The notes: generated from the sequence alone by a model not told the origin. Shown: positions 2 through 11,941, counted from the stretch's first letter. The stretch is 24,000 nucleotides of DNA from Deltaproteobacteria bacterium (GCA_015488275.1 WFOD01000047.1:781-24780); one strand, 5' to 3'. Made by a program: numbers and translations.

Positions 2-202
2 TACGGCATGGAAGAGGCGGGCGGCACCCAGTGCCTGCTCCTTGCCGGCGTGGACTTCGACCTGCTCGGCTTCAATCCCCGTATCGACAACGTACCCTAT
101 CCGCAGTTCACCTGGGCCTATATCAAGAAAGTGCCGGTGCTCATCGGCCTGCTCTTGGCCGCTGGCACAGCGATCCACCGGTTGACCAGGGAACGCGACT
201 GA
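2..202 (+). CDS. hybA: C-terminal end of a HybA-like 4Fe-4S ferredoxin-type hydrogenase electron-transfer subunit (5' end lies outside the window)
   Basis: The frame is open from the window edge to TGA 200-202. [24 protein letters not shown] resembles the YGE-EAGGTQ-L-L-GV-F--L segment near the C-terminus of HybA/NrfC/PsrB-type subunits (recalled from memory). A hydrophobic C-terminal anchor follows ([15 protein letters not shown]). It lies directly upstream of the large subunit. Confidence 0.5.
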
Positions 203-228: not shown

Positions 229-1929
229 ATGGCGCGGCGCATCACCATCGACCCGGTAACCCGAATCGAGGGCCACCTGCGTATCGACTGCGAGGTCCGC
301 GACGGCGCAGTGACAAAGGCGTGGTCCTCGGGCCAGATGTGGCGGGGATTCGAGCTGATCCTCCAGGGCCGCGATCCTCTGGAGGCATGGCTGTACACCC
401 AGCGGTTCTGCGGCGTGTGAACGTCGGTGCACGCACTGGTCTCAGTGCGTACAGTGGAAAACGCCCTCAACCTCGAGGTGCCGAAAAACGCCCAGTACAT
501 CCGCAACATGATCATGGGCGCCCATGCGGTGCACGATCACATCGTCCACTTCTACCATCTCTGCGCCCTGGACTGGGTGGATATCGTTTCCGCCTTGTCA
601 GCCGATCCGCGGGCCGCGGCCCGCTTGGCCCAGAGCCTCTCCGACTGGCACCGCAACACCTACGAGGAGATGAAGGCCACCCAGGAGCGGCTCCAAGCCC
701 TGGTCAACTCAGGCCAACTTGGCGTTTTCGGCTCAGGGTACTGGGGCCATCCGGCCATGAAGCTGCCGCCAGAGGTCAACCTGCTGGCGGCCACCCATTA
801 CCTCCAGGCCCTGGAGTACCAGCGGGAGATCAACAAGGTGGTGGCCCTGCTGGGCGGCAAAACGCCCCACATCCAAAACGTGGCCGTGGGCGGCGTGGCC
901 AATCCCATCAACCTGGACAGCCCGGACACCCTGAACATGGAACGGCTGTACCACATCCGCACCCTGCTCGACAAGGCCGACGCCTTTGTCAAGAAGGTGG
1001 CCCTGGTGGATGTGGCCGCGGTAGGCGCCTTCTACGCCGACTGGACCGCGCATGGCACCGGGGTGACCAACTACCTTTCCGCGCCGGACATGCCAATGGA
1101 CGAACAGGGAACAGAGTTCTTCCTCCCCGGCGGCTACATCCCGGCCGGTGATGTGGGGGCCTTTACCGCCATCACCTCGTTCGACGATCCGTTTTTTGAA
1201 AAAAACGTCCAGGAATCGATCAAACACTCCTGGTACGACGGCGACTGGCACCGCCATCCCTACGAGGAGGAAACCGTGCCCCGCTACACCGATTTCCAGG
1301 ACGATGGCAAGTACTCGTGGGTCAAGTCGCCAACCTTCAAGGACGAGCCCGCCCAGGTGGGCCCCCTGGCCAACGTGCTGTGTATGTACGCCGCTGGCCA
1401 CGAGCCGACCAAGAAGTACGTGCACCAGGTCCTCGACACGGTGTCCACTCTGGCCAAAACCAAGGTGGGCGTCCCAGCCCTGCACTCGACCATCGGCCGG
1501 ATCGCGGCCCGGGTGGTCCGCTGCGCCGTGCTCAACGACACGCTGGCCCACCAGTGGCGGTCCCTGGTGGCCAACATCGAGTCGGGCGACACCAGCACCT
1601 TCAACCCGCCATCCATGCCCAGCGGCACGGTGCAGGGATTCGGTTTCCACGAGGCCCCGCGGGGCATTCTCTCCCACTGGATCGTCATCGACAACGGCAA
1701 GGTCAAGAACTACCAGGCCGTGGTGCCCTCCACCTGGAACGCCGGGCCGCGCAATCACAACGATGCGCCCGGCCCTTACGAGGCGGCGCTGGTCGGCACG
1801 CCGCTGGCCGATCCAGAACAGCCCCTGGAGGTCCTGCGCACCATCCATTCCTTTGATCCATGCCTGGCGTGCGCCATCCATCTGTTTGACCCCGCTGGCG
1901 GCGAGCTGGTGCAGGTGCGGGCGCTGTGA
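229..1929 (+). CDS. hybC: [NiFe]-hydrogenase large subunit, HybC-type, read through an in-frame UGA at 418-420 (predicted selenocysteine)
   Basis: GGAGGA (217-222) precedes ATG 229. The N-terminus [23 protein letters not shown]...QRFCGV-[TGA][16 protein letters not shown] is collinear with E. coli HybC. The track ORFs 31-420 and 427-1929 are in the same frame. The C-terminus has the DPCLACAIH motif (1855-1881) plus a 15-aa extension for proteolytic maturation. Internal conserved blocks include [39 protein letters not shown] and [10 protein letters not shown]. Confidence 0.85.
418..420 (+). other. In-frame UGA at the position of the second Cys of the RxCGxC (L1) motif; predicted Sec codon
   Basis: It is the only stop interrupting an otherwise full-length large-subunit frame. 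It aligns to a metal-ligating Cys. A SECIS-like hairpin follows. Confidence 0.7.
428..453 (+). promoter_or_regulatory. SECIS-like stem-loop within the coding sequence, downstream of the UGA
   Basis: Perfect 7-bp stem ACGCACT (431-437) / AGTGCGT (444-450) with loop GGTCTC (438-443). Two further pairs are possible below a C/A mismatch (428-429 with 452-453). The loop GGUC sits at +21 to +24 counted from the U of UGA; in E. coli fdhF it sits at +22 to +25. Confidence 0.65.
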
Positions 1930-2568: not shown

Positions 2569-3702
2569 ATGAACGGGCAACAGCACGACATCAAGATGTG
2601 GACCCCGCATACAGTGATCCTTTTCGTCCTCATGCTGGTGGGCCTTGCCGCCATGACCTACCGGCTCCTTTACGGCCTCGGCGCCGCCTCGGGCATGAAC
2701 GACGTGTATCCCTGGGGCTTCTGGCTCGCCTTCGACGTGTTGGGCGGAGTGGCGATGGCCGCTGGCGGATTCATCATCGCCTGTGCCATCTACATCTTTA
2801 ACTGGAAGAAATACAAGCCCATTGGCAGGCCGGCCATCCTCACCGCCTTTCTCGGCTACCTCATGGCCGTGGTCGCCCTGTTTCTCGATATCGGCCATCC
2901 CTTGCGCCTCTGGCATCCGATGGTCATGTGGCAGGTCCATTCGGTGATGTGGGTGGTGGCGATCCATGTCATCCTCTACACCACCACCTTGGGCATCGAA
3001 TCGTCGCCCATGCTCTTGGAAAAACTCGGCTGGCAACGCACGCTGGCCGTGCTCAAAAAGCTGATGGTGGGAGCGGTCATCTTTGGCGTCATGCTCTCCA
3101 CCCTGCACCAGGCATCCTTGGGCGCGGTCTTTTTGATCACCGGCCCCCGCATGTCGCCTCTGTGGTACACCCAGTTTCTGCCTTATCTTTTCCTGGTCTC
3201 GGCCATCGCTATGGGCCTGGCAATGGTGAGCATGGAGGCGATGTTCAGCTCTTGGGCCTTCAACCACCGCATCCCAGGCGAAATCTTTACCGGCCTGGCG
3301 GCCGGCCTGCGCAACACCTTGGCCGTCTACCTCGTTCTCAAGCTTTTTTTCCTCATCAAGAACGCTGGCATTGGCGCAGCCCTGGACGGCAGCCTGGCCG
3401 GCAACATGTACCTGGCCGAGATGCTCATCGGCGTGGTGATGCCGCTCGCCGTGCTCACCTTTGCCGGCACCCATCTGGACCGCCTTTCGCTCCTCGTGGT
3501 CAACGTGCTGGTCATCGGCGGCGTGCTCCTCAACCGGCTCAACGTCTGTCTGTTCAGCATGGAGGAGTACGCTGAATTCCGGGGCGGCTCCTACCTGCCT
3601 ACCTTGCCCGAGCTGCTCATCACTCTTGGCATCGTGGCCCTGGGCGTGTTCCTTTTCAAGATGGCGGCCAAACACCTGCCGCTCTTTGCCGCGGAAAATT
3701 GA
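2569..3702 (+). CDS. hybB: NrfD/PsrC-family integral membrane subunit of the hydrogenase (HybB-like)
   Basis: AAGGAG lies upstream of ATG 2569. The protein is polytopic and hydrophobic. YPWGFWLAFDVLGGVAMAAGGF, LEKLGW, STLHQASLGAVFL and LPTLPELLITLGIVAL are collinear with E. coli HybB as recalled. Confidence 0.85.
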   Translation: MNGQQHDIKMWTPHTVILFVLMLVGLAAMTYRLLYGLGAASGMNDVYPWGFWLAFDVLGGVAMAAGGFIIACAIYIFNWKKYKPIGRPAILTAFLGYLMAVVALFLDIGHPLRLWHPMVMWQVHSVMWVVAIHVILYTTTLGIESSPMLLEKLGWQRTLAVLKKLMVGAVIFGVMLSTLHQASLGAVFLITGPRMSPLWYTQFLPYLFLVSAIAMGLAMVSMEAMFSSWAFNHRIPGEIFTGLAAGLRNTLAVYLVLKLFFLIKNAGIGAALDGSLAGNMYLAEMLIGVVMPLAVLTFAGTHLDRLSLLVVNVLVIGGVLLNRLNVCLFSMEEYAEFRGGSYLPTLPELLITLGIVALGVFLFKMAAKHLPLFAAEN

Positions 3703-3741: not shown

Positions 3742-4083
3742 ATGCATGAGTTGAGCTTGGCATGTTCGCTGGTGGATCTGGCCTGCCAGCGGGCGCAAGA
3801 GGAAGGGGCGAGCCGCATCACCGCCCTGGAGGTCGAGGTGGGGGCCCTGGCCGGAGTGATGCGCGAGGCCCTGGCCTTTGGCTTTGAGGCCGCCTGCCGC
3901 GACACCCTGGCCCAAGGGGCGCGACTCGTGATCATCGAGGAGCCGGCCAAGGGTGTATGCAGCGCATGCCGCGTCACCTGCCGGCTGGCCCGGTTCACCA
4001 TCACCTGCCCGGCCTGCGGCGCGGCGGCGCTCGAAATCAGCGGTGGAGACCGTCTCTGCCTGCGCGCCATTGAGGTAGCGTGA
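3742..4083 (+). CDS. hypA: Hydrogenase nickel-insertion protein HypA
   Basis: N-terminal MHELSL motif. Two CxxC pairs are present (CSACRV ... CPACG). Size is 113 aa. Confidence 0.92.
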   Translation: MHELSLACSLVDLACQRAQEEGASRITALEVEVGALAGVMREALAFGFEAACRDTLAQGARLVIIEEPAKGVCSACRVTCRLARFTITCPACGAAALEISGGDRLCLRAIEVA

Positions 4084-4179
4084 GCCAACAAGCGGCGGCG
4101 CAAACGTAAAAGTGATCACAGGACTGCCTCTTCGAACGCCGAAGTCGCAGCCTCGCAGACCAGCAACCAAGGATCCATC

Positions 4180-4902
4180 ATGTGCACCGACTGCGGTTGC
4201 CACCCGCATCATCCCGACGACACCCCGCATACGGGTGATCCAGGGGACGGGTACGCCTCCCGCCGTCTCTTGGTGGAGGCGGCGGCCACTGCGGCCAACG
4301 ACGAGACGGCCCGCCACAACCGGGAGGCGTTTCGCCGCCAGCGGCTCACGGCCCTCAACCTGATGAGCTCGCCAGGGGCGGGCAAGACATCGATCCTGGA
4401 GCGGACCATCCGCCACCTGGCCGGCCGCCGGCCGGTATATGTCATCGAGGGTGACCAGCAGACGCGCAACGACGCCGAGCGGATCGAGCGGGCCGGCGCA
4501 ACAGCGGTACAGATCAACACGGGCAGCGGCTGCCATCTGGAGGCCGGCATGGTGGCCCGGGCCGTGGAGCGGCTCGATCCCCTTCCAGGCGGCCTGCTGT
4601 TCATCGAGAACGTCGGCAACCTCGTGTGCCCGGCCATGTTCGATCTCGGCGAGCAGGCCAAGGTGGTCATCATCAGCGTAACCGAGGGTGACGACAAGCC
4701 GGAAAAATACCCCTACATGTTCCGGGCCGCCCGGCTCTGCCTGATCAACAAGACCGACCTGCTCCCCTACGTGGACTTTGATCCCGGCCGCTGCCGGCAA
4801 CTCGCCCGGGCGGTGAACCCGCACATCACCTGCATCGAGCTGTCGGCCCGCACCGGCGAGGGATTCGACGCCTGGCTGCAATGGCTTTCCGGGCTGGCGT
4901 AA
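4180..4902 (+). CDS. hypB: Hydrogenase nickel-incorporation GTPase HypB
   Basis: N-terminal MCTDCGC high-affinity metal motif. P-loop SSPGAGKTS. Also ENVGNLVCPA and the NKTDL G4 motif. Confidence 0.95.
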   Translation: MCTDCGCHPHHPDDTPHTGDPGDGYASRRLLVEAAATAANDETARHNREAFRRQRLTALNLMSSPGAGKTSILERTIRHLAGRRPVYVIEGDQQTRNDAERIERAGATAVQINTGSGCHLEAGMVARAVERLDPLPGGLLFIENVGNLVCPAMFDLGEQAKVVIISVTEGDDKPEKYPYMFRAARLCLINKTDLLPYVDFDPGRCRQLARAVNPHITCIELSARTGEGFDAWLQWLSGLA

Positions 4903-7211
4903 AACGCACCGCGAGCCACGCCTTGCCGCGCCCGCGCCACGGGGAGAACGCACGGCTGCGTATCGAGGTGCAAGGTTTTGTCCAGGGCGTGGGCTTCCGG
5001 CCACACGTCTATCGCCTGGCCACCCGCCTCGGGCTCAGCGGCTTTGTGCGCAACACGCCAGCAGGCGTGGAGATCGAAGTGCAGGGGCCGGCCGGGACGC
5101 TGGCCCGCTTTCAGGACGAACTTGCGGCCTCGCCACCGCCGGCGGCCCGTATCCTGGCCCTGCACACAGAGCGGGTCCGGCCGGGCGCTGAACGCTCTTT
5201 TGTCATCCACCCCTCGACCGCCGGCCACGCGGCCACCGCCCTGGCCAGTCCCGACATCGCCCTGTGCGCCGATTGCCGCCGCGAACTGTTCGCCGCCGGC
5301 GACCGCCGGCACCGCTATCCCTTCATCAACTGCACCAACTGCGGCCCGCGGTTTACCATTATCGAATCCCTGCCGTACGACCGGCCGGCGACCACCATGC
5401 GCTCCTTCACCATGTGCGCGGCCTGCCGACAGGAATACGAGGATCCGGCAGACCGCCGCTTCCACGCCCAGCCCAACGCCTGCCCGGCCTGCGGGCCGGC
5501 ACTCGTGCTGCTGGCCCCTACGGGCGCTCTCCTTGCCCGGCGCGAGGCGGCCCTGGCCGGCGCGCGCCACGAGCTGCGGGCCGGAAACATCGTGGCCATC
5601 AAGGGCATCGGCGGCTTCCACCTCGCCGTGGACGCGGCCAATGCAATGGCCGTGCACCGTCTGCGGCGGCGTAAACGCCGGCCGAGCAAGCCCTTTGCCC
5701 TCATGGTCCGCGACCTTGCCACCGCCCGCCGTATCTGCCGCCTTTCCCCCCAGGAAGAAGCGGCGCTCTGCTCGTGGCGGGCGCCCATCGTGCTCTTGGA
5801 ACGCCTCGCCGCCGCCGATCGCCTCGCCGCCGCCGTGGCCCCAGGACTGGACCGGCTGGGGATCATGCTGCCGTACACGCCGCTCCACCATCTCATCCTG
5901 GCCGACGGACCGGACATCCTGGTCATGACCAGCGGCAACCGCAGCGGTGAACCCATCGTCACCAGCAACGACGAGGCGATGCAGCGCCTCTCCCCGCTGG
6001 CCGACGCCATTCTGGCCCACGACCGCGACATCGTGCTCCCGTGCGACGATTCGGTGGAGATCCAGCTTGGCCAGGGGGTCGTCCCCCTGCGCCGCGGCCG
6101 GGGATGGACGCCGGCCCCCCTGCCCCTCGCCGGTCCGGCTTCCCTTGGCCCGCCGGTGCTCGCCACAGGCGGCGACATGAAAAACGCGGCCTGCACCTTG
6201 CGCCATGACCTCGCCTTTGCCGGACCGCACGTGGGCGACGTGGACACGCCAGCCGGCCTTGCGGCCTTTGCCAAGGCGATCGCCCACATGGAGCATCTCC
6301 TGGGGGTGCGGCCGGAAATCGTGGCCTGCGACCCGCATCCCGACTATCTGACCCGTCAATGGGCCGCGGCCTGCGGCCGCACCGTTGTGGAGGTGCAGCA
6401 CCATCACGCCCACTTTGCCGCCTGCCTGGCCGAAAACCGGCTCAGCGGGCCAGCGGTGGGGCTGATCCTCGACGGCACGGGCTACGGCCTGGACAACACG
6501 ATATGGGGCGGCGAAATCCTGGTGGGCGACGCGCGGCACACGGCGCGGCGCGGCCATCTGCGGCCCCTGCGCCTGGTGGGCGGCGAGCGGGCGATCCGCG
6601 AGCCCTGGCGCACCGGCATCGGCTTTCTTTTGCAAGTGGCGGAACCCAGCCTGCTGCCCGCGCATCTGCAGACCTATCCCTGGCAGATGCTGGCCCAGGC
6701 CCTGGCCGCAGGCATCAACGCGCCGCTCACCACGAGCTGTGGCCGGTTGTTCGACGCGGCCGCCGCCATCACCGGCCGCTGTCTGCGCGCCTCCTTTGAC
6801 GGAGAAGCGCCCATGCGCCTGTCGGCCGCCCTGACCCTGCCCGCCGACCATCTTTACCCGGTGCGCCTGGAGGAAAAGGACGGTATACTGGTGCTCGATA
6901 CCGGCCCGCTCCTGGCCGGCATGGCCGGCGACATGCAAGCCGGCGTCGGGGCCGAGAGGATCAGCGGCCGCTTCCACGCCTCGCTCGCCCATCTCCTGGC
7001 CAGCGCCGCTGCTCAGGTGGCGGCCGACGAGGGGCTCGATATCGTGGTCCTGTCCGGCGGCTGCTGGGCCAACCCGCATCTCTTCCATCTCGTGCGCCGC
7101 GAGCTCGCCGAACGCGGCCTGCGGGTCGCCCGCCACCAATTCCTGCCGCCCGGTGATGGCGGGCTTGGCCTGGGGCAGGCGGTAACGGCGCGGTTGCGGG
7201 CGGCCGGTTAG
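4881..7211 (+). CDS. hypF: Carbamoyltransferase HypF
   Basis: Acylphosphatase-like VQGVGFRPHVYRLA. Two zinc-finger repeats (CADCRREL..NCTNCGPRFTII and CAACRQEY..ACPACGP). YrdC-like IKGIGGFHLA and a Kae1-like C-terminal half. Starts 22 nt inside the hypB 3' end; the exact start is uncertain. Confidence 0.93.
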   Translation: MAFRAGVKRTASHALPRPRHGENARLRIEVQGFVQGVGFRPHVYRLATRLGLSGFVRNTPAGVEIEVQGPAGTLARFQDELAASPPPAARILALHTERVRPGAERSFVIHPSTAGHAATALASPDIALCADCRRELFAAGDRRHRYPFINCTNCGPRFTIIESLPYDRPATTMRSFTMCAACRQEYEDPADRRFHAQPNACPACGPALVLLAPTGALLARREAALAGARHELRAGNIVAIKGIGGFHLAVDAANAMAVHRLRRRKRRPSKPFALMVRDLATARRICRLSPQEEAALCSWRAPIVLLERLAAADRLAAAVAPGLDRLGIMLPYTPLHHLILADGPDILVMTSGNRSGEPIVTSNDEAMQRLSPLADAILAHDRDIVLPCDDSVEIQLGQGVVPLRRGRGWTPAPLPLAGPASLGPPVLATGGDMKNAACTLRHDLAFAGPHVGDVDTPAGLAAFAKAIAHMEHLLGVRPEIVACDPHPDYLTRQWAAACGRTVVEVQHHHAHFAACLAENRLSGPAVGLILDGTGYGLDNTIWGGEILVGDARHTARRGHLRPLRLVGGERAIREPWRTGIGFLLQVAEPSLLPAHLQTYPWQMLAQALAAGINAPLTTSCGRLFDAAAAITGRCLRASFDGEAPMRLSAALTLPADHLYPVRLEEKDGILVLDTGPLLAGMAGDMQAGVGAERISGRFHASLAHLLASAAAQVAADEGLDIVVLSGGCWANPHLFHLVRRELAERGLRVARHQFLPPGDGGLGLGQAVTARLRAAG

Positions 7212-7233
7212 CAGCCCGTTGCACAACGGGCTG
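7212..7233. repeat. Short palindromic hairpin CAGCCCGT-tgcaca-ACGGGCTG immediately after the hypF stop
   Basis: 8-bp perfect inverted repeat read directly. The same stem sequence recurs at 9890-9916 and as the basal stem of element C (20059-20100). Confidence 0.55.
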
Positions 7234-7323
7234 TGCGCGACACACGGATGCGCCACTGACGCTGCAGATGGGATACCCTGTGACCAGATACCTGCCGGAA
7301 ACACCAAGGAGGAGCCATACGCC

Positions 7324-7662
7324 ATGTGTCTCGCCATCCCAGGCCAGGTAGCCACGATCACCGACGAGGGAGGCTTGCGCATGGCCGAGGTGGCCTACGG
7401 TCCTGTCCGCAACAGGGTCTGTTTGGCATATCTGCCAGAGGCCAAGGTCGGCGACTTTGTGATCGTCCACGCAGGGTTCGCCATCTCGATCCTGGACGAG
7501 GCCGAGGCGGCCGAGCGCCTGGCCGCCTGGCGCGAGTACGTGGAGGAGGCCCGGCGGGCTGGAATGGAGATCCCAGAAGCCGATACCGTACTCCAGGCCC
7601 TGGAGACGCCGGAACGCCCCAAGAAGCACGTTACGGACGACGACCATCACGAACGCCGCTGA
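7324..7662 (+). CDS. hypC: Hydrogenase assembly chaperone HypC
   Basis: [10 protein letters not shown]-terminus, where the essential Cys2 must follow the initiator Met. AGGAGG lies about 12 nt upstream. [17 protein letters not shown] core. The charged C-terminal tail is longer than usual. Confidence 0.9.
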
Positions 7663-7685
7663 CCGCCCGCTCCTGGAGCCAAACC

Positions 7686-8782
<1,097 letters not shown>

Positions 8783-8786
<4 letters not shown>

Positions 8787-9844
8787 ACCGCGCCAAGCCC
8801 CCTCCTTCTTGCCCCCTGCCAGGAGCCGCCGCCGGCAACGGCCGCATCACCCTGGCGCACGGAAGCGGCGGCCGGCTGAGCGCCGAACTCATCGAGCGCC
8901 TCGTGCGCCGCCACTTCAGCAATCCGGCCCTCGACCGGCTGGAAGACGCGGCCACCCTGCCCGCCACCAGCGGCCGGCTGGCCTTTTCCACCGACACCTT
9001 TGTTGTCCAACCGCGTTTTTTCCCTGGCGGCAACATCGGCGAGTTGGCGGTGAACGGCACGGTGAACGATCTCGCCATGATGGGGGCCCGTCCCCGCTGG
9101 TTGAGCGTGGGGTTTGTGCTGGAAGAGGGCTTTTCCCTGGCCGAACTCGAAGAGATCTGCGCCAGCATGCGCCAGGCCGCGGACAACGCCGGGGTAACGA
9201 TCGTGACCGGCGACACCAAGGTGGTGGGACGCGGCGGCTGCGACGGCCTGTTCATCAATACCGCTGGGATCGGCGTGGTGCCGGAGGGCGTGGATCTGGG
9301 CGCGCACCGCATCCAGGCCGGCGACCGCCTCATCGTCTCTGGTCCGATCGGCAGTCATGGCATGGCCGTGATGCTCGCCCGCGGCCAGCTCTCCTTTGCC
9401 TCGGAGATCGCCAGCGACACCGCGCCCCTGGCCGGGCTGGCCGTCGATATCCTGCGCGCCGCAGGCAGCGGCCTCCACGCCATGCGCGACGCCACCCGCG
9501 GCGGTCTTGGCGCAGTGCTGGCCGAGTTCGGCCGCGCCGCTTCCCTTGGCATGGAGATCACCGAACAACGGCTTCCCGTGCCGCCGGACGTCCAGGCCGC
9601 CTGCGACATCCTGGGCCTCGACCCGCTCTTCGTGGCCAACGAAGGGGTGCTGGTGGCCGTGGTGACGCCGGAGACGGCGGACGCCGTGCTCGCCGCCTGC
9701 CACGCGCATCCGCAAGGCAGGCACGCGGCCTGCATCGGCGCGGTGTGCGCCGAGCATCCTGGCAAACTCCTCAGACGCACGCCCTTTGGCGGCCGGCAAA
9801 TCGTGGCCGTTCCAGCGGGCGAGCTGCTGCCGCGCATCTGTTGA
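8783..9844 (+). CDS. hypE: Hydrogenase maturation protein HypE (carbamoyl dehydratase)
   Basis: ATGA overlap with the hypD stop. LAHGSGG N-terminal motif, AIR-synthase-like body, and the C-terminal PRIC motif ending the protein. Confidence 0.95.
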
Positions 9845-10723: not shown

Positions 10724-11059
10724 TTATTGACACGGGGCCGAAGGGCGCGTCGTGCTCGGCGATGAAGCGGCGCGGGCAGCCACCTGCTTCGGGGATGTGT
10801 GGGTAGAGAATTTTATCTCAATGGGCAGGAGGCCGAATTTGCCCTCCAGAACCAGATCCACCTCGGCGCCGTGCTTGGTTTGGAAATAAAAATATTCCCA
10901 GCGCGTCGCGCTGGTCGCCTGCCCACCCTTGATGATCTCCTTGATGACGAACGATTCGAAATTCTGACCTATCCGAGGGGAGCGGATCATCTTTTCCCGG
11001 GAGTCGATTCCGGCGAGATAGTGGAGCAGGGCCGTGAGGTTCCTTTCCAGTACGGTCAT
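10724..11059 (-). pseudogene. Remnant of a DUF4143-type AAA+ ATPase (C-terminal domain only)
   Basis: LLHYLAGI..PRIGQNFESFVIKEIIKG..WEYFYFQTKHGAEVDLVLEG..LLPIEIKFS matches the C-terminal DUF4143 region of this ATPase family. The roughly 250-aa N-terminal ATPase domain is missing (TAA 3 codons upstream of the Met). The C-terminal tail drifts into GC-rich Ala/Ser/Pro sequence. Confidence 0.6.
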
Positions 11060-11248
11060 ATTCTGATGTTACATCAGGTTTTTCCCGGTATGAAAGAACG
11101 GCGACAGGAATTTGGGGCTCTTCTCTCGCCGCCATCCCATGCGAAAGGGTGGCCAACGGCGTGTTTCCGCCCTCCGGTTCGTTCCTGGTCATGGACGGCC
11201 AGGTGCCGCTCCGCCCCCCTGGCCGGGCCGTTCCGGACCGCGGTCCTG

Positions 11249-11273
11249 GCCGGCCCGGCGAAAGCAAATTCCT
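11249..11273. repeat. Islet repeat, copy 2: GCCGGCCCGGCGAAAGCAAATTCCT
   Basis: 25/25 identical to 11985-12009, in direct orientation. Confidence 0.85.
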
Positions 11274-11298
11274 GTCAACTGTTACGAGACCGTCACAA

Positions 11299-11327
11299 TT
11301 GACAATGTGAGTCGCGCATGATAGAGT
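11299..11327 (+). promoter_or_regulatory. Candidate sigma70-type promoter of the toxin-antitoxin operon
   Basis: TTGACA (11299-11304), a 17-nt spacer, then TAGAGT (11322-11327), about 65 nt upstream of the antitoxin ATG. Followed by reiterated TAG(A)GTTGA / TAGTTGA / TAGTTCGA motifs (11322-11362) that could be operator sites. Confidence 0.35.
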
Positions 11328-11393
11328 TGAGCTAAATTATAGTTGACCTATATTTAGTTCGATTGCTGGGCGTGTCACTGAAGGAGGTTGTCC

Positions 11394-11651
11394 ATGAATA
11401 TCCTTTCCGTCTCGGAGGCGAAAATGAAGCTCAGCTCCCTGGTCGATTCTGTCAAGGCGACCGATCAGGAGGTGGTTATTACCAAGAACGGCAAGCCAGT
11501 CGCTGTCCTGGTGAGCCCTGAAGAGTTCGAGGGGTGGCGGGAGACCATATCCATACATTCCGACGCCGACCTGATGCAGGAGATCAGAAGAGGATTGAAG
11601 GCCTTAAAGAAGAACAGGAGCGATCTTTATTCACTTGAGGAACTGTTGTAA
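11394..11651 (+). CDS. Type II antitoxin, Phd/YefM family
   Basis: AAGGAGG lies 6 nt upstream of ATG 11394. MNILSVSEAKMKLSSLVDSV...VVITKNGKPVAVLVSPEEFEGWRET is a typical Phd/YefM N-terminal fold signature. The toxin gene starts 3 nt after its stop. Confidence 0.85.
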   Translation: MNILSVSEAKMKLSSLVDSVKATDQEVVITKNGKPVAVLVSPEEFEGWRETISIHSDADLMQEIRRGLKALKKNRSDLYSLEELL

Positions 11652-11653
11652 GG

Positions 11654-11941
11654 ATGGCTGGTGAATATCGATTGCGTGTGCCGGTTGAAACCGCAGCATT
11701 TTTGAGGAAACTGCATCCCAAGATCAAACGGCACATCAAGTCGGCCCTTGAGATGATTGTCAATGATCCTTTCTTGGGAAAGCCGCTCAAAGACGATCTG
11801 GAAGGTTTGCGAAGTTTGCGCGTCAAAAGGTACCGAATTGTCTACCGGGTCGCGGTTCCTTTCCGGGAAATAGAGATCGTCGCCATTGGACCCAAAAGAA
11901 ATATTTATGAGGACACATTCAGGCTTATCAGCCGTGAATGA
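11654..11941 (+). CDS. Type II toxin, RelE/ParE family
   Basis: 95 aa. KIKRHIKSALEMIVNDPFLGKPLKDDLEGLRSLRVKRYRIVYRV...IEIVAIGPKRNIY matches the RelE/ParE family pattern. Tight coupling with the upstream antitoxin. Confidence 0.85.
   Translation: MAGEYRLRVPVETAAFLRKLHPKIKRHIKSALEMIVNDPFLGKPLKDDLEGLRSLRVKRYRIVYRVAVPFREIEIVAIGPKRNIYEDTFRLISRE

Follow-up and report, generated by a model that had tools for sequence, protein, structure and literature searches.

The classical group 1a [NiFeSe] hydrogenases carry selenocysteine (Sec) as the first residue of the C-terminal DPUxxC motif, where it is a terminal ligand of Ni, and selenium in this terminal position is credited with the high H2-production activity and the fast recovery from O2 of these enzymes. 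The second cysteine of each of the two metal-binding motifs of the large subunit, Cys68 and Cys533 in D. gigas, bridges Ni and Fe. The first of these corresponds to Cys64 in HybC, the large subunit of E. coli hydrogenase-2 (Hyd-2), and to Cys79 in E. coli hydrogenase-1 (Hyd-1). To our knowledge no natural enzyme carrying Sec at the N-terminal bridging position has been purified or studied biochemically.

Large subunits of this kind, with CxxU in place of the N-terminal CxxC, have been known since 2011 but are barely described. As cited in PMC13582414, Baltazar et al. (2011) reported two Group 1 sequences and one Group 3 sequence with an N-terminal CXXU, and the second position of the motif in CXXU variants is described there as a Ni-Fe bridging ligand. 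The same source surveys the CXXU and UXXU variants of Group 4, with 27 CXXU sequences (Takano et al. 2026), and presents Group 4 UXXU as a previously unrecognised motif. The original prediction for the locus described here had asked whether the variant was already catalogued; it was, briefly, in the 2011 work, which lowers the novelty of the case and leaves the call itself unaffected. In a 2026 review, the table of prokaryotic selenoproteins lists hydrogenase catalytic (alpha) subunits only as UxxC. Evans et al. (2021; PMC8020662) term the natural bridging-Sec examples ‘purported’, citing Baltazar et al. (2011), and number the residue C579, in the C-terminal motif, not C79. In the engineered E. 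coli Hyd-1 variant C79U, Sec replaces the equivalent bridging Cys of a Group 1 enzyme; according to that study it kept 13 % of native activity, the best of four Sec variants, and its KM for H2 was lower, which makes bridging-Sec chemistry plausible. The variant is however artificial: UAG suppression was used to make it, in a group 1d scaffold that is O2-tolerant and whose surroundings are not co-adapted.

Here we describe a hydrogenase locus within a 24,000-nucleotide stretch of DNA from a Deltaproteobacteria bacterium (hereafter the window), in which codon 64 of a Hyb-type large-subunit gene is UGA. This codon is very probably read as Sec by means of SelB and a hairpin in the message, giving a predicted bridging selenolate.

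The large-subunit gene and its operon

The large-subunit gene of a [NiFe]-hydrogenase of the Hyb type (group 1c) occupies positions 229 to 1929 of the plus strand and comprises 566 codons with one UGA read through. Its ATG at 229 is preceded by a GGAGGA ribosome-binding site (215-220) and its terminal stop codon lies at 1927-1929; the sole internal stop of the frame is the TGA at 418-420, codon 64. The translated protein matches PF00374 (E 1e-196), and its best match in the PDB is E. coli HybC (6en9_L, E 1.2e-232), to which it aligns end to end, without gaps in the N-terminal region and with 58 % identity over the full length (566 residues here and 567 in HybC; 6EN9, 6EHQ). The two proteins share the L1 and L2 motifs, a C-terminal extension and partners of the HybA, HybB and HybD types, and differ in that HybC has a Cys codon where the window gene has UGA 64 and a SECIS-like hairpin.

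The N-terminal motif for Ni binding, C61-G-V-U64 (409-420, plus strand), reads TGC GGC GTG TGA, the UGA being the predicted Sec at the bridging-ligand position, within the context QRFCGV-TGA-TSVHAL (R59 at 403-405, C61 at 409-411, U64 at 418-420). The L1 signature RxCGxCxxxH takes the form RFCGV(U)TSVH, with U for the second Cys, and DPCxxCxxH appears as DPCLACAIH. This C-terminal motif, D543-P-C545-L-A-C548-A-I-H551 (1855-1881, plus strand), is all-Cys by in-frame translation and by alignment to HybC, with ordinary TGC codons at 1861-1863 (C545) and 1870-1872 (C548), exactly as the original prediction had stated. All four metal-ligand columns of the two motifs could be matched to HybC column by column: C545 and C548 fall on HybC Cys546 and Cys549, and the TGA of codon 64 on HybC Cys64, so that the earlier placing of the TGA at the second Cys of the N-terminal CxxC, the equivalent of D. 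gigas Cys68, held when the bridging-Cys column was checked. On this gapless, 58 %-identical alignment to solved Hyd-2 structures the residue equivalence is settled. The 15 residues that follow His551, together with the stop codon (1882-1929, plus strand), align with the HybC extension, and cleavage of this tail after His551 by a maturation protease is expected from the known maturation of Hyd-2.

By its translation and its alignment to HybC the window protein belongs to the N-terminal CXXU type of [NiFeSe] hydrogenase, with which it shares the all-Cys C-terminal motif, a SECIS with an apical-loop G directly downstream of the UGA, and a mosaic distribution of Sec and Cys forms found mostly in MAGs. 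The Group 4 members of that type (Takano et al. 2026) are energy-converting complexes, whereas the window enzyme is predicted to be a respiratory Hyb-type Group 1c hydrogenase. The classical group 1a [NiFeSe] enzymes (D. baculatum, 1CC1; D. vulgaris HysA, 2WPN/5JSH) have in common with it the periplasmic Group 1 fold and a single UGA-decoded Sec (here predicted) among the four ligands; they are however ~485-507 aa in length and pass electrons to cytochrome c3, while the window enzyme has DPCLAC, with TGC at 1861-1863, where they carry Sec.

Scores against solved structures and family models separate the protein from these classical enzymes. The large subunit scored 777 bits with Hyd-2, 573 with A. 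vinosum, 523 with D. gigas and 475 with Hyd-1, and HysA structures matched it only at ~260-270 bits. The best NCBIfam model was NF007778, ‘hydrogenase 2 large subunit’, at 859 bits, which is under the strict equivalog cutoff of 969, and the HysA [NiFeSe] model NF045518 gave 351 bits against a cutoff of 780, placing the protein outside that family. Because of its gene neighbours, the Hyd-2 model as best NCBIfam match and the low HysA score, the enzyme is assigned by sequence to Hyb-type group 1c with a complete maturation set, and not to the classical group 1a [NiFeSe] hydrogenases. The original prediction, a HybA/HybB-coupled Hyb-type enzyme distinct from group 1a, is borne out on both points, Hyd-2 being the best match in the PDB and in NCBIfam, HybA lying upstream and an NrfD/HybB-type subunit downstream.

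The hybA gene, for a periplasmic 4Fe-4S electron-transfer subunit with a C-terminal membrane anchor, is represented in the window by its 3′ end (2-202, plus strand; NF008134, 357 bits, cutoff 263). An earlier reading of this ORF as the C-terminus of the small subunit gave way to HybA on the above-cutoff NF008134 match and the presence of the full gene on the source contig. A full hybA (325 aa) lies directly upstream of the large subunit on the MAG contig JALSWK010000411.1 (GCA_027073345.1), which begins inside or just before hybA, so that the Tat-exported small subunit HybO would be off the contig. Downstream of the large subunit, and on the same strand, are a hybD-type maturation endopeptidase (1926-2552; PF01750 HycI, E 4e-27; also a called gene of the source contig) and a hybB-like integral membrane subunit of the NrfD family (2569-3702; PF03916), for which NF008133 (261 bits) and HmcC (263 bits) score about equally and both under their equivalog cutoffs. 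The annotated maturation set hypABFCDE is complete (3742-9844, plus strand) and comprises hypA (3742-4083), hypB (4180-4902), hypF (4881-7211), hypC (7324-7662), hypD (7686-8786) and hypE (8783-9844). All of these genes around the large subunit are intact, hybA being the one of which only the 3′ end falls inside the window. The order hybA-hybC-hybD-hybB(-like) differs from the hybOABCD of E. coli Hyd-2; the Sec-type relative L127 (255-5239) has hybO-hybA-hybB-hybC-hybD, as in E. coli, with a Hyd-2-type small subunit upstream of hybA.

The remainder of the window, from ~10 to 24 kb, contains a thioesterase, a ParE toxin and housekeeping genes mostly on the minus strand, none of them selenium-related. 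Between the hyp cluster and the minus-strand housekeeping block, at 10724-11941, lie a fragment of DUF4143 on the minus strand and a toxin-antitoxin pair, PhdYeFM/ParE; the related locus L002 likewise has a ParE gene right after its hydrogenase genes.

Conservation of the in-frame TGA

Nine members of the 90 % cluster, drawn from NCBI, ENA and JGI assemblies, had the identical split ORF, and the same split into 63-aa and ~500-aa ORFs recurred in L002 and L003, whose identity is 84-87 %. When metagenome contigs were scanned with the protein, 68 relatives were identified, 55 with an L1 region fitting the search pattern; the column of codon 64 held TGA in 39 of these loci and TGC or TGT in the other 16. 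Six further covered loci were read directly: in two of them (L152 and L177) both N-terminal ligand codons are TGA, and the other four have Cys, bringing the TGA-type loci among these relatives to 41 (39 plus L152 and L177). Neither TAA nor TAG occurred at this column in any of the covered metagenome relatives (55 plus six loci). Every locus in the metagenome scan at least 75 % identical to the window was TGA-type; among Cys-type proteins, identity to the window goes up to 78-80 %, and in a neighbour-joining tree a few lineages of Cys type are scattered through a Hyb-type group that is mostly Sec.

Comparison of codons 1-63 with L002, L003 and L124 gave 22-25 synonymous and 4-5 non-synonymous changes, and codons 65-566 follow the same regime. 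Since the purifying pattern of the first 63 codons resembles that of the downstream part, both sides of the TGA are translated as functional protein. The gene has a conserved in-frame UGA aligned with a Cys of its homologues and coding constraint on both sides, and on this comparative evidence the TGA is a genuine recoding. The source is a MAG contig and one TGC to TGA change would suffice to produce such a codon from a normal Cys-type hybC, so that a sequencing or assembly error, or a pseudogene, is the obvious trivial explanation. It is however effectively refuted, and keeps a barely appreciable chance, given the same TGA in many independent assemblies and species, the purifying selection on both sides, the intact accessory operon and the co-occurrence of a hairpin with the TGA.

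A further explanation takes the annotation at face value. Gene callers annotate precisely a 63-residue and a ~500-residue ORF, and split large subunits do exist in nature, as in VhuA/VhuU of Methanococcus; the 63-residue peptide and the 500-residue protein might be made separately and assemble in the same way. Several features of the locus and its relatives speak against such a split gene. Among the metagenome relatives every stop at this column is a TGA, with TAA and TAG absent and Cys codons in the remaining loci. No Shine-Dalgarno motif lies ahead of the GTG at 427, and no downstream start codon is conserved, because the downstream ORF varies between 485 and 500 residues among near-identical members of the cluster. 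A product begun at GTG 427 would be without Cys61 and the entire L1 motif, the fourth metal ligand would be absent from both pieces, and residues 64-66 would be lost. On the invariant TGA, the varying start and the lost ligand we rejected the split gene, which we consider highly improbable, in favour of readthrough with Sec.

The gene callers of NCBI, JGI and ENA split genes of this kind into a 63-aa ORF (229-417 in the window) and a 485-500-aa ORF (427-1929 in the window). A first homologue search had suggested that nearly all close relatives are Cys-type; this was an artefact that DNA-level searches reversed, the Cys-type homologues having looked nearest because Sec-type genes are stored as truncated ~500-aa ORFs and score lower. 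Because the ORF is split at the UGA by gene callers, surveys of hydrogenases and of selenoproteomes both undercount such genes. On two metagenome contigs (L142 and L143, ~4488-4511) a Sec-type Hyb gene has TAG for the conserved Trp of AVVPSTW in a frame otherwise intact through DPCLAC; this may represent a nonsense allele or else another recoding event.

The SECIS-like hairpin and the decoding of codon 64

A SECIS-like hairpin lies within the coding sequence at 424-457 (plus strand, dG -20.7 kcal/mol). Its core stem of 8 bp, 431-438/443-450, is formed by ACGCACUG/CAGUGCGU and closes the apical loop GUCU (439-442), with a weaker lower stem at 424-429/452-457. The core begins 10 nt after the UGA, the distance from UGA to loop is 18 nt and the first loop base is G; the apical GGUCU presumably resembles the apex of the E. 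coli fdhF SECIS. The folding energy against shuffles is marginal (z = -1.66) and, for a single sequence, is no evidence by itself. An Rfam scan of the whole window returned no family at threshold, and Rfam has no model for the hairpin.

The comparison between sequences is more telling. We applied bacterial SECIS criteria of a stem of at least 6 bp, a G in the first two loop bases and a UGA-to-loop distance of 16-37 nt, which 133 of 134 distinct TGA-type sequences passed, compared with 8 of the 17 of Cys type (Fisher p = 2.6e-9). Entropy at third codon positions over codons +4 to +11 was ~0.73 bit in TGA-type and 1.43 in Cys-type sequences, with equal flanks (~1.35); the synonymous sites of the hairpin are frozen only in TGA-type genes. 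Across 26 distinct sequences of the window's hairpin class the stem does not vary, and no compensatory covariation was found among them, so that support within this class comes from synonymous-site conservation. In other clades this place is taken by hairpins of different sequence. These include CUGUCCUC-GGU-GAGGGCAG, in which Arg is encoded by the rare AGG; CAGCUC-CGUGC-GAGCUG, which has a variant CUGCUC/GAGCAG showing an A-U to U-A swap; and CUCGGUC-CGGGC-GAUCGAG.

Among the residues that best discriminate Sec-type from Cys-type Hyb sequences are S66 (Thr in Cys-type), L70 (Ile) and S/T75 (Ala). As the codons of residues 66, 70 and 75 lie in the hairpin, RNA structure seems to shape the protein sequence at these sites; the 1b-like clade uses AGG, a rare codon that pairs in the stem, for the Arg of SVR. 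A reading of the discriminating columns as active-site adaptation was set aside, since they reflect partly SECIS codons (66, 70 and 75) and partly phylogeny.

The hairpin also bears on which amino acid is inserted. A Cys-inserting tRNA such as tRNA-ReC or an allo-tRNA, or decoding as another standard amino acid, would leave an all-sulfur [NiFe] site. The ancestral residue at the codon-64 column is Cys, and sequence alone cannot distinguish Sec from Cys brought by a UGA-reading tRNA; genomes with tRNA-ReC may read such a UGA as Cys, which, according to PMC13582414, limits all calls of this type. Recoding by a tRNA alone needs no hairpin, however, and in 133 of the 134 distinct sequences the UGA goes together with a hairpin of the SelB type that has a G in its apical loop and frozen synonymous sites, which counts against decoding as Cys and leaves it unlikely. 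No selA, selB, selC or selD was found in the 24-kb window, and a tRNA scan of the window for selC detected no tRNA.

We infer that Sec is the residue inserted and that Se bridges the metals, and any catalytic effect is likewise predicted. In the route that we favour, the hairpin at 431-450 with its loop GUCU would most likely recruit SelB with Sec-tRNA(Sec), Sec would be inserted at codon 64 and translation would run on as far as the stop codon at 1927-1929. Metal insertion by the Hyp proteins would follow, after which HybD would remove the 15-residue tail behind His551. The predicted site is Ni(S-Cys61)(S-Cys545)(μ-Se-Sec64)(μ-S-Cys548)Fe(CO)(CN)2, in which Cys61 and Cys545 would be terminal on Ni. 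Electrons would pass from the small subunit to HybA, the NrfD-type HybB and the quinone pool, making the enzyme a putative membrane-anchored, periplasmic H2-uptake hydrogenase. A bridging selenolate, if present, would give properties unlike those of both standard [NiFe] and classical [NiFeSe] enzymes. With its complete operon and a SECIS with an fdhF-like apex the locus offers concrete targets for expression, spectroscopy and electrochemistry.

Predicted N-terminal Sec among Group 1 hydrogenases

An exact scan for [QE]R-x-C-G-V-TGA-[TP]-x-x-H in contigs from one genome per species gave at least 120 matches, and ~105 of the 120 listed (L004-L123) are true large subunits whose C-terminal motif is all-Cys. 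CxxU is thereby found in more than 100 species-level genomes, in 1a-like, 1b-like, 1c and 1e-like enzymes, the subgroups being assigned by nearest solved structure (L009, L007, L045/L116 and L047 are examples of the non-1c types). Among the matches listed, the Hyb-type 1c enzymes come from Desulfobulbales, Nitrospirota and Thermodesulfovibrionales; the 1b-like enzymes, nearest to D. vulgaris Miyazaki, from ~40 Desulfobacterales species; the 1e-like enzymes, nearest to A. vinosum, from Anaerolineae and other Chloroflexota; and the 1a-like enzymes, with C-terminal Cys, from Desulforudis and other Bacillota. The 1a-like proteins of 481 aa whose nearest structure is HysA include those of Desulforudis sp. 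Tu-874 (two copies), Ca. Desulfopertinax and UBA3572.

By these sequence counts predicted CxxU enzymes are widespread in uncultured anaerobes, and there is strong sequence evidence that selection maintains a putative Sec at the bridging position of respiratory Hyb-type enzymes. Selenium as a natural Ni-Fe bridge has so far rested on a few ‘purported’ sequences, and the scale of CxxU in Group 1 looks under-documented, the accessible literature crediting this group with only two sequences. We see a somewhat better than even chance that N-terminal CxxU, occasionally UxxU, defines a large and biochemically uncharacterised class of Group 1 enzymes that has several origins, spans at least four subgroups (1a-like, 1b-like, 1c and 1e-like) and more than 100 species of Desulfobacterota, Nitrospirota, Chloroflexota, Spirochaetota and Bacillota, and has a SECIS design for each group.

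Two Group 1c loci have UxxU, L152 (1386-1430; Ga0334722_10064059) and L177 (3174-3220; Ga0214473_10006693). At 75-76 % identity they read QR[IF]-TGA-G-V-TGA-TTVHAL, followed by a hairpin of the same class as that of the window. A Chloroflexi MAG (L111, CALMIS010000294.1) has adjoining Sec-type and Cys-type large-subunit genes (3814-5530 and 5642-7340) that are 78 % identical, an arrangement resembling vhu/vhc and fru/frc, the selenium-regulated Sec/Cys isoenzyme pairs of Methanococcus.
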